From: Escherichia coli
GTDB lineage: Bacteria > Pseudomonadota > Gammaproteobacteria > Enterobacterales > Enterobacteriaceae
Strand: one strand, 5' to 3'
Assembly (NCBI RefSeq): GCF_003334385.1
Contig: NZ_QOWN01000066.1
Length of the DNA stretch: 14,062 nucleotides
The notes under the pieces were generated by a model. The model did not search any database. It worked only from the letters and a program-made list of their open reading frames with translations, and was not told the DNA's origin. The position numbers and the translations under genes were made by a program. Shown in pieces: positions 13,628 through 13,853 of the stretch (the first letter of the stretch is position 1; each line of letters starts with the position of its first letter).

Positions 13628-13853
13628 GTGCCGTGCCTCCATCTTTGCCGGGCCTGCAGGGTTGCAAGGGCGCAAGGGAAGCCGCAGCCTGACGCACACG
13701 GCTGGCGGGAGTTGGAGGGTGAGACCGCGAAATCTGAGCGGGTGAACGACCGGAAAATCACGGCAGACGGGAAGGAGGGACCGGGTGACCGCAGCGGTTC
13801 ACCTTACCTTGCAACCCGCCCGCAGAAGCCCGGCTACGATGGAGGCACGGCAC
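13628..13853 (-). promoter_or_regulatory. Third long imperfect hairpin, upstream of klcA; candidate ssDNA promoter, sequence distinct from copies 1 and 2
   Basis: GTGCCGTGCCTCCATC (13628-13643) is perfectly complementary to GATGGAGGCACGGCAC (13838-13853). The adjacent arms 13644-13670 and 13803-13837 pair imperfectly. The central region is about 130 nt. Confidence 0.4.

Follow-up and report, generated by a model that had tools for sequence, protein, structure and literature searches.

A long hairpin upstream of klcA in an Escherichia coli plasmid leading region, very probably a copy of the class 2 single-stranded DNA promoter

Six hairpins located 5′ of six operons induced in early transconjugants have been described in the plasmid pESBL (Wen et al. 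2025, NAR, December 2025, PMC12672017), where all six transcription starts were mapped by 5′RACE in early transconjugants and RNA-seq was also used. Three of these hairpins are the Frpo-like elements ssi1-3 and constitute class 1 of the single-stranded DNA (ssDNA) promoters. The hairpins of klcA and ardA resemble each other, are unlike Frpo/ssi and represent class 2, and the remaining one, 5′ of M.EcoGIX, represents class 3 (PMC12672017). In the same study, class 2 was found to be conserved in F, early induction of klcA and ardA was strong, and a start at the hairpin together with transient induction in early transconjugants was shown for both pESBL and F. The induction is transient, tied to the single-stranded state and prolonged in uvrD-deleted recipients (PMC12672017). 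The F copy has been named Frpo3 (bioRxiv 10.1101/2025.04.03.647016), and a preprint on the element, there called ssp2 (bioRxiv 10.64898/2026.01.09.698686), reported a stall of complementary-strand synthesis at the stem end that does not depend on transcription and is relieved by UvrD, as determined with the F-type stem. The same preprint contrasts ssp2, as a block to strand synthesis, with class 1, which primes it. Deletion of ssp2 halved the output of PsiB and lowered transfer into EcoKI recipients 5-fold and into EcoGIII recipients 36-fold, and placing ssp3 in the position of ssp2 restored transfer into EcoGIII recipients (bioRxiv 10.64898/2026.01.09.698686). Hairpins of this kind set the moment at which genes of an incoming resistance plasmid are first expressed, and they allow anti-restriction genes to be made while the DNA is still single-stranded. 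Those of class 2 also seem to postpone strand conversion and thereby to lengthen this period of expression.

The window analysed here is a stretch of 14,062 nucleotides from E. coli (contig NZ_QOWN01000066.1 of assembly GCF_003334385.1), and it covers oriT and the leading region of a plasmid of the IncI/IncK type. Its left part contains nikB and nikA (4328-7470, minus strand). To the right of them follows a run of minus-strand genes which ends in a 63-codon ORF, a DUF1380-family gene and klcA. This gene order is collinear with that of pCT (IncK) and also, in reverse orientation, with that of pESBL (IncI1). Given that oriT lies on the left and that all leading genes point towards it, the plus strand is both the transferred strand and the template; the direction of transfer was adopted from the literature (Wen et al. 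2025, PMC12672017). The first gene of the klcA operon (13161-13586, minus strand) encodes a protein of 141 amino acids of the KlcA/ArdB anti-restriction family. It was identified by Pfam (Antirestrict, PF03230, E = 3e-26), NCBIfam having given no match for KlcA, and its relatives carry the annotation 'antirestriction protein'. The second gene (12692-13114, minus strand) belongs to the DUF1380 family and is collinear with its counterparts in pCT, pESBL and F; the 63-codon ORF (12504-12695, minus strand) comes after it. A leader (13587-13621, minus strand) with a GGAGG ribosome-binding site at 13594-13598 separates the klcA ATG from the base of a long hairpin, which is the subject of this report. 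On the far side of the hairpin there is a terminator-like hairpin followed by a T run (13892-13910, minus strand), identical in sequence in F, which in relatives ends the operon upstream of the long hairpin. Terminator, hairpin and leader form a module of about 354 bp (13593-13945) that is duplicated 5′ of klcA and 5′ of ardA in pCT and pESBL.

Several other features of the region deserve mention. The last nucleotides of the window (13985-14062) are the end of an IS4-like element, IS421, about 125 nt past the hairpin. In pCT, the same junction is occupied by ISCro1 of the IS66 family. The presence of different IS elements at one junction suggests an insertion hot spot beside the upstream terminator. 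Furthermore, a block of about 5.85 kb that is present in pCT (7398-13245 of the pCT stretch), comprising ardA, its class 2 hairpin, psiA, psiB, parB and ssb, is absent from the window. The junction of the missing block corresponds to 11804-12300, within a class 1 (Frpo/ssi) repeat, and the deletion accordingly resembles the outcome of recombination between two class 1 copies, an event which Couturier and colleagues reportedly stated to be possible in 2023. Finally, an A+T-rich pair of direct repeats (9356-9397 and 9423-9464), each with the palindrome AAAGTGAA...TTCACTTT, is located immediately 5′ of a small helix-turn-helix ORF (9465-9716, plus strand); judging from this arrangement, the pair looks like a candidate operator.

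The arms of the inverted repeat upstream of klcA were located by a repeat search within the window. The outer arms (13622-13653 and 13828-13859) are 32 nt long, 91% complementary and 174 nt apart, and the inner arms (13659-13669 and 13807-13817) form a perfect repeat of 11 nt. Folded as ssDNA, the plus strand of 13615-13865, which includes the hairpin at 13622-13859, forms a single long stem of -76.3 kcal/mol, with a perfect block of 16 bp between 13628-13643 and 13838-13853. In total there are about 44 pairs enclosing about 137 nt, in good agreement with an earlier note on this DNA, which had described a perfect 16-bp pair with imperfect flanks, a stem of about 40 bp and a centre of about 130 nt. 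The same note had placed the hairpin about 40 bp from the klcA ribosome-binding site; the actual distances from the hairpin base are 24 nt to GGAGG and 36 nt to the ATG. The 5′ arm (13622-13669, plus strand), belonging to the transferred strand and aligned with the pESBL and F copies, is the template arm in the model described below, and the 3′ arm (13807-13859, plus strand), which bears both promoter-like hexamers, is the non-template arm. Between them lies a central core (13670-13806, plus strand), the most conserved part of the element, in which the stem is predicted to go on as an imperfectly paired rod bearing a small side hairpin. Pairs of the main stem have ensemble probabilities of 0.95-1.0, and those at the junction between the two stem segments 0.48-0.71.

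The comparison of folding energy with shuffled controls, proposed in the earlier note as a check, came out clearly: 200 dinucleotide-preserving shuffles gave -52.7 +/- 3.6 kcal/mol, none of them as good as the native plus strand (z = -6.57). The energy also lies below the mining threshold of -75 kcal/mol used by Wen et al. The minus strand of the same hairpin folds at -71.6 kcal/mol (z = -6.86). Any inverted repeat must fold nearly equally well on both strands, hence folding energy cannot choose between them. The earlier note had placed the hairpin on the plus strand, a choice that follows from the context, this strand being the one transferred and the template, and from the unequal arms. No Rfam covariance model matched anywhere in the window at gathering thresholds.

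The region 13600-13880 has close homologues in well-studied plasmids. It is 88% identical to pESBL-EA11 57076-57356, located 5′ of klcA, 87% identical to pESBL-EA11 64024-64299, located 5′ of ardA, and 88% identical to 56459-56740 of F ([GenBank:NC_002483]), located 5′ of a klcA-family gene. These three matches extend over 277-287 aligned positions with E values of 1e-94 to 1e-101. The 3′-end-capture primers of the ssp2 preprint map to 11084-11103 and 11175-11197 of the F stretch and point into the hairpin at 11476-11722. Because they map just before the F hairpin, ssp2 is the F homologue of the hairpin studied here. Together, the shuffles and the conservation exclude a chance origin. In our opinion, the klcA hairpin is very probably a copy of the class 2 ssDNA promoter (ssp2, Frpo3) of the IncI/IncK/IncF leading regions, and the grounds for this are its structure, homology, covariation, arm asymmetry and context.

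Two class 1 repeats are present in the window (about 8971-9261 and 11840-12128), matching the Frpo regions of F and the three class 1 ssi of pESBL. The earlier note had described the hairpin as unrelated in sequence to these repeat copies and suggested that it represents a second family of ssDNA promoter-like elements. The first point agrees with our BLAST comparison (word size 7) of 13600-13880 with both repeats (8950-9290 and 11820-12160), in which no similarity beyond chance was detected, only matches of 8-14 nt with E about 1. The second is borne out by the homologues at 87-88% identity, which are the published class 2 promoters. In other words, a reading of the sequence alone recognised a second family of ssDNA promoters that experimentalists described only in 2025-2026. 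The element is already known, and the call was correct without being a new discovery.

Homologues were gathered from F, pESBL, pO157 and IncK plasmids and from plasmids of Klebsiella, Raoultella-like bacteria, Citrobacter, Serratia, Yersinia, Enterobacter and Entomohabitans. At least 5000 PLSDB plasmids carry the element. Among 5426 complete E. coli genomes it occurs in 3659, about two thirds, and 8785 of its 8912 places are on plasmids. The window copy is an ordinary class 2 member with the less studied type of inner stem, the one that about a quarter of the E. coli records (1076 + 323 of 5127) match best. In all 15 relatives whose annotation was examined, the gene immediately downstream of the element is ardA or a member of the klcA/ardB family, with the same strand arrangement as in the window. 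In pCT there are two copies, one 5′ of klcA and the other 5′ of ardA. A separate pattern scan of contigs returned 16 matches, six of which were rejected as chance palindromes lacking homology. Near-identical class 2 elements were also found in contigs filed as Streptomyces morookaense and as Oscillospiraceae and Collinsella MAGs; these are most likely enterobacterial plasmid contamination or the result of mis-binning.

Within a plasmid, the two class 2 modules are more alike than they are between plasmids: 97.7% in pCT (8088-8440 versus 15034-15386 of the pCT stretch) and 95.8% in pESBL (about 7013-7364 versus 13958-14310 of the pESBL stretch), compared to 87-88% between plasmids. Both copies in one plasmid also have the same inner-stem type. 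As far as can be judged from these alignments, the likeness points to concerted evolution by gene conversion. In pSJC33-3 (20001-20281 of the stretch), the ardA-side hairpin is a natural hybrid that combines an F-type 5′ arm with a 3′ arm of the window type, and the ardA gene downstream of it is annotated as frameshifted.

Terminal inverted repeats of 32 nt, two copies per IncI plasmid and the hybrid copy in pSJC33-3 might be expected of a miniature inverted-repeat mobile element, or of a recombination scar, that came to lie upstream of klcA by chance. We consider this highly improbable. The element was seen in two contexts only, each time with an anti-restriction gene downstream of it and without any change of orientation. 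Moreover, the duplicated unit of about 354 bp overruns the ends of the inverted repeat by 29 nt and 86 nt, which means that the repeat ends are not the ends of an element, and the interior is strongly constrained while the stem covaries.

Covariation was analysed in 16 F-type sequences with a hand-specified main stem of 45 pairs. Only F-type sequences were used because MAFFT misaligned the two stem types in a mixed alignment, from which RNAalifold then lost the inner stem. In the F-type main stem, 94.7% of the cells are paired, versus 37-40% with slid partners. Two-sided changes were found in three stem pairs, 28/237 (C-G to A-T), 51/218 (G-C to T-A) and 56/213 (G-C to A-T), amounting to 18 cells, and the observed covariation score was reached in none of 500 shuffles. 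A compensated change also distinguishes the two stem types at the last base of the -35-like hexamer, where TTGCAA pairs with TTGCA in the window and TTGCAT with ATGCA in F. The folding energies of 15 homologues range from -70 to -80 kcal/mol. Arm-swap duplex energies, on the other hand, did not separate native arm pairs from foreign ones, the G+C-rich arms pairing promiscuously, and they carry no weight as evidence here.

Stop-free stretches of 60-100 codons are present in this region, and the hairpin could in principle encode a small protein, the ORFs in question being 13628-13882 (plus strand), 13552-13761 (minus strand) and 13758-13991 (minus strand). At the G+C content of the hairpin (68%), however, nearly every frame has such stretches, and their frames and limits vary among homologues. 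From one stem type to the other the frame is lost through indels in the arms (+5 and -4 nt), none of the ORFs overlapping the hairpin has an NCBIfam match, and the variable columns, inspected by eye, have no period of three. We give this explanation next to no credence.

The two arms are not equivalent. The 3′ arm carries a -35-like hexamer, TTGCAA (13809-13814, plus strand; TTGCAT in the F/pESBL type), which is fully paired, with an unpaired probability of 0.1 or less, and a -10-like hexamer, TACGAT (13835-13840, plus strand; TAAGAT in most relatives), opposite ATCTTT of the 5′ arm. Within this -10, T13835 and C13837 have an unpaired probability of 1.0. All 15 distinct variants have the pattern TTGCA[A/T] ... 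TA[A/C]GAT on the 3′ arm, with A2 and T6 of the -10 kept, and in all 15 the sigma-70-like hexamers occur on this arm only. The complement of the 5′ arm reads [G/C]TGCAT-19-T[T/G]TTAT (or TTTTCT) in 13 of the 15 variants, the F type, and TTGCAA-15-AAAGAT in the window type. The -10 is imperfectly paired in all 15 variants, by a 3x3 internal loop in the F type and by two single mismatches in the window. In the window type, the -10 is paired more tightly than in the F type, and on this structural prediction the strength of the promoter may be different. In the window hairpin the hexamers of the 3′ arm are separated by 20 nt and those of the 5′ arm by 15; the corresponding F-type spacers are 15 and 19, and a spacer of 16-18 occurs on neither strand. 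The two types differ in the arm from which the surplus nucleotides protrude, and averaged over both arms the spacer is about 17, which may or may not be meaningful. With such non-canonical spacing, the assignment of the -35 and -10 boxes to these hexamers, read from the sequence, could be wrong. A sigma-70 promoter with a spacer of 16-18 nt was found on neither strand of 13400-14062. Covariation, arm asymmetry, the imperfect -10 and the failure to find a duplex promoter in the region support the ssDNA-promoter mechanism.

Inverted repeats are typical of operators, and both strands of this one fold equally well in silico, as would suit a conventional regulatory site in duplex DNA, namely an operator or cruciform to which a repressor binds. 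Such a site is very improbable here. Arms of 32 nt that are 174 nt apart are far outside the dimensions of an operator, the promoter-like hexamers are confined to one arm in every variant, and the published induction is transient, tied to single strands and prolonged in uvrD-deleted recipients (PMC12672017).

A somewhat more serious alternative, still unlikely, is that the hairpin serves the incoming strand purely as a structure, namely as a pause site or a priming (ssi/primosome) site for complementary-strand synthesis, and that klcA is transcribed from elsewhere. The ability of F ssp2 to stall complement synthesis independently of transcription (bioRxiv 10.64898/2026.01.09.698686), the fact that Frpo-type elements also prime DNA synthesis (PMC12672017; bioRxiv 10.64898/2026.01.09.698686) and the non-canonical hexamer spacing are compatible with it. 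Yet the starts mapped by Wen et al. are at class 2 hairpins, with strong early induction of klcA and ardA (PMC12672017). In addition, the restoration of EcoGIII transfer on replacement of ssp2 by ssp3 points to a need for promoter activity, and upstream of klcA we find no other promoter and a terminator-like site just before the hairpin.

With the hairpin taken as a class 2 ssDNA promoter, the following mechanism may be proposed. During conjugation, the plus strand of the window would enter the recipient with its 5′ end first, from oriT adjoining nikA. Before the complement is synthesised, 13622-13859 would snap back into the stem of about 44 bp, which would serve RNA polymerase as a duplex promoter, with the 3′ arm as the non-template strand (TTGCAA, TACGAT) and the 5′ arm as the template. 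The mismatches in the -10 would leave this promoter partly open. Transcription would start near 13634 and proceed leftwards through klcA, the DUF1380 gene and the 63-codon ORF. The predicted start at 13634 (minus strand), which we infer from the fold and the hexamers, is the template base paired with 13847, 7 nt past the -10, and implies a leader of about 48 nt. Once the complement is made, the hairpin would disappear. What the duplex would then offer upstream of klcA is the 5′-arm complement, whose -10 is poor (T[T/G]TTAT or TTTTCT in the F type, AAAGAT in the window type), so that expression would stop. According to this Frpo logic, the promoter would be on only while the DNA is single-stranded, the duplex promoter being inferior to the partly open one that the hairpin forms. 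Judging from the homologous F ssp2, complement synthesis probably also halts at the 3′ base of the stem (about 13860) until the stem is unwound by UvrD, and a stall of this kind would keep every ssDNA-driven leading gene expressed for longer. For homologues, others have demonstrated transcription starts, induction in transconjugants, blocked strand synthesis and its UvrD dependence; by analogy, the window copy is presumed to be active, including at its predicted start site.

The centre of the hairpin is another matter. Its length is the same in every homologue (129-130 nt, depending on where its limits are set), and lineages whose klcA genes share about 70% identity, and about 50% at third codon positions, share 90-92% in the centre. 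In the same lineages the leader is 67-74% and the upstream flank 58-65% identical (58-69% where the flanks are taken together), and even the stem arms, at 84-92% between F-type lineages, are less conserved than the centre. RNAalifold continues the stem through the centre as an imperfect rod with one more compensatory pair (99/161). The pairs of the centre are mostly invariant, which is compatible with a rod and uninformative either way. A G-quadruplex in the G-rich centre was considered and rejected, as inspection by eye showed interruptions of two or three G runs in about half of the homologues. The published descriptions of class 2 elements, in the parts accessible to us, assign function only to the stem and treat the centre as a loop. 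Conceivably, the centre is no passive loop but a sequence-specific functional module, for example a site for RNA polymerase, SSB, UvrD or another factor, or the determinant of the strand-synthesis block that sets class 2 apart from classes 1 and 3, although we offer this only tentatively. The constraint on the centre is the sole point of the hairpin that might repay work.

Compared with the described systems, the window hairpin is closest to the class 2 elements of pESBL (klcA, ardA), with which it shares size (238 nt), core, and position and orientation before klcA. They differ in the inner stem, TTGCAA in the window and TTGCAT in pESBL, and in the extra nucleotides, which bulge on the 3′ arm in the window and on the 5′ arm in the pESBL hairpins. 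The -10 is TACGAT with two single mismatches in the window, whereas in pESBL it is TAAGAT in a 3x3 loop. Furthermore, pESBL has both the klcA and the ardA copies, while the window, with its ardA block deleted, retains the klcA copy only. The neighbourhood of ssp2/Frpo3 in F, where the hairpin lies upstream of yfgB, is the same as here: an upstream gene with a terminator, the hairpin, a klcA-family gene and a DUF1380 gene. The F stem has a perfect outer block of 20 bp and folds at -79.6 kcal/mol, compared to -75.7 kcal/mol for the window stem in that comparison; the stall of strand synthesis and its UvrD dependence have been shown in F only. The class 1 elements, Frpo1/Frpo2 of F and ssi1-3 of ColIb-P9, are reportedly the ssDNA promoters of Masai and Arai (1997) and Bates and colleagues (1999). 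Their G+C content is 61-65%, versus 68% in the window hairpin, and they are unrelated to it in sequence. They nevertheless lie in the same region and in the same orientation as the window hairpin, and each is likewise a long, imperfectly paired hairpin on the transferred strand, one that rebuilds -35 and -10 boxes as the window hairpin is predicted to do.
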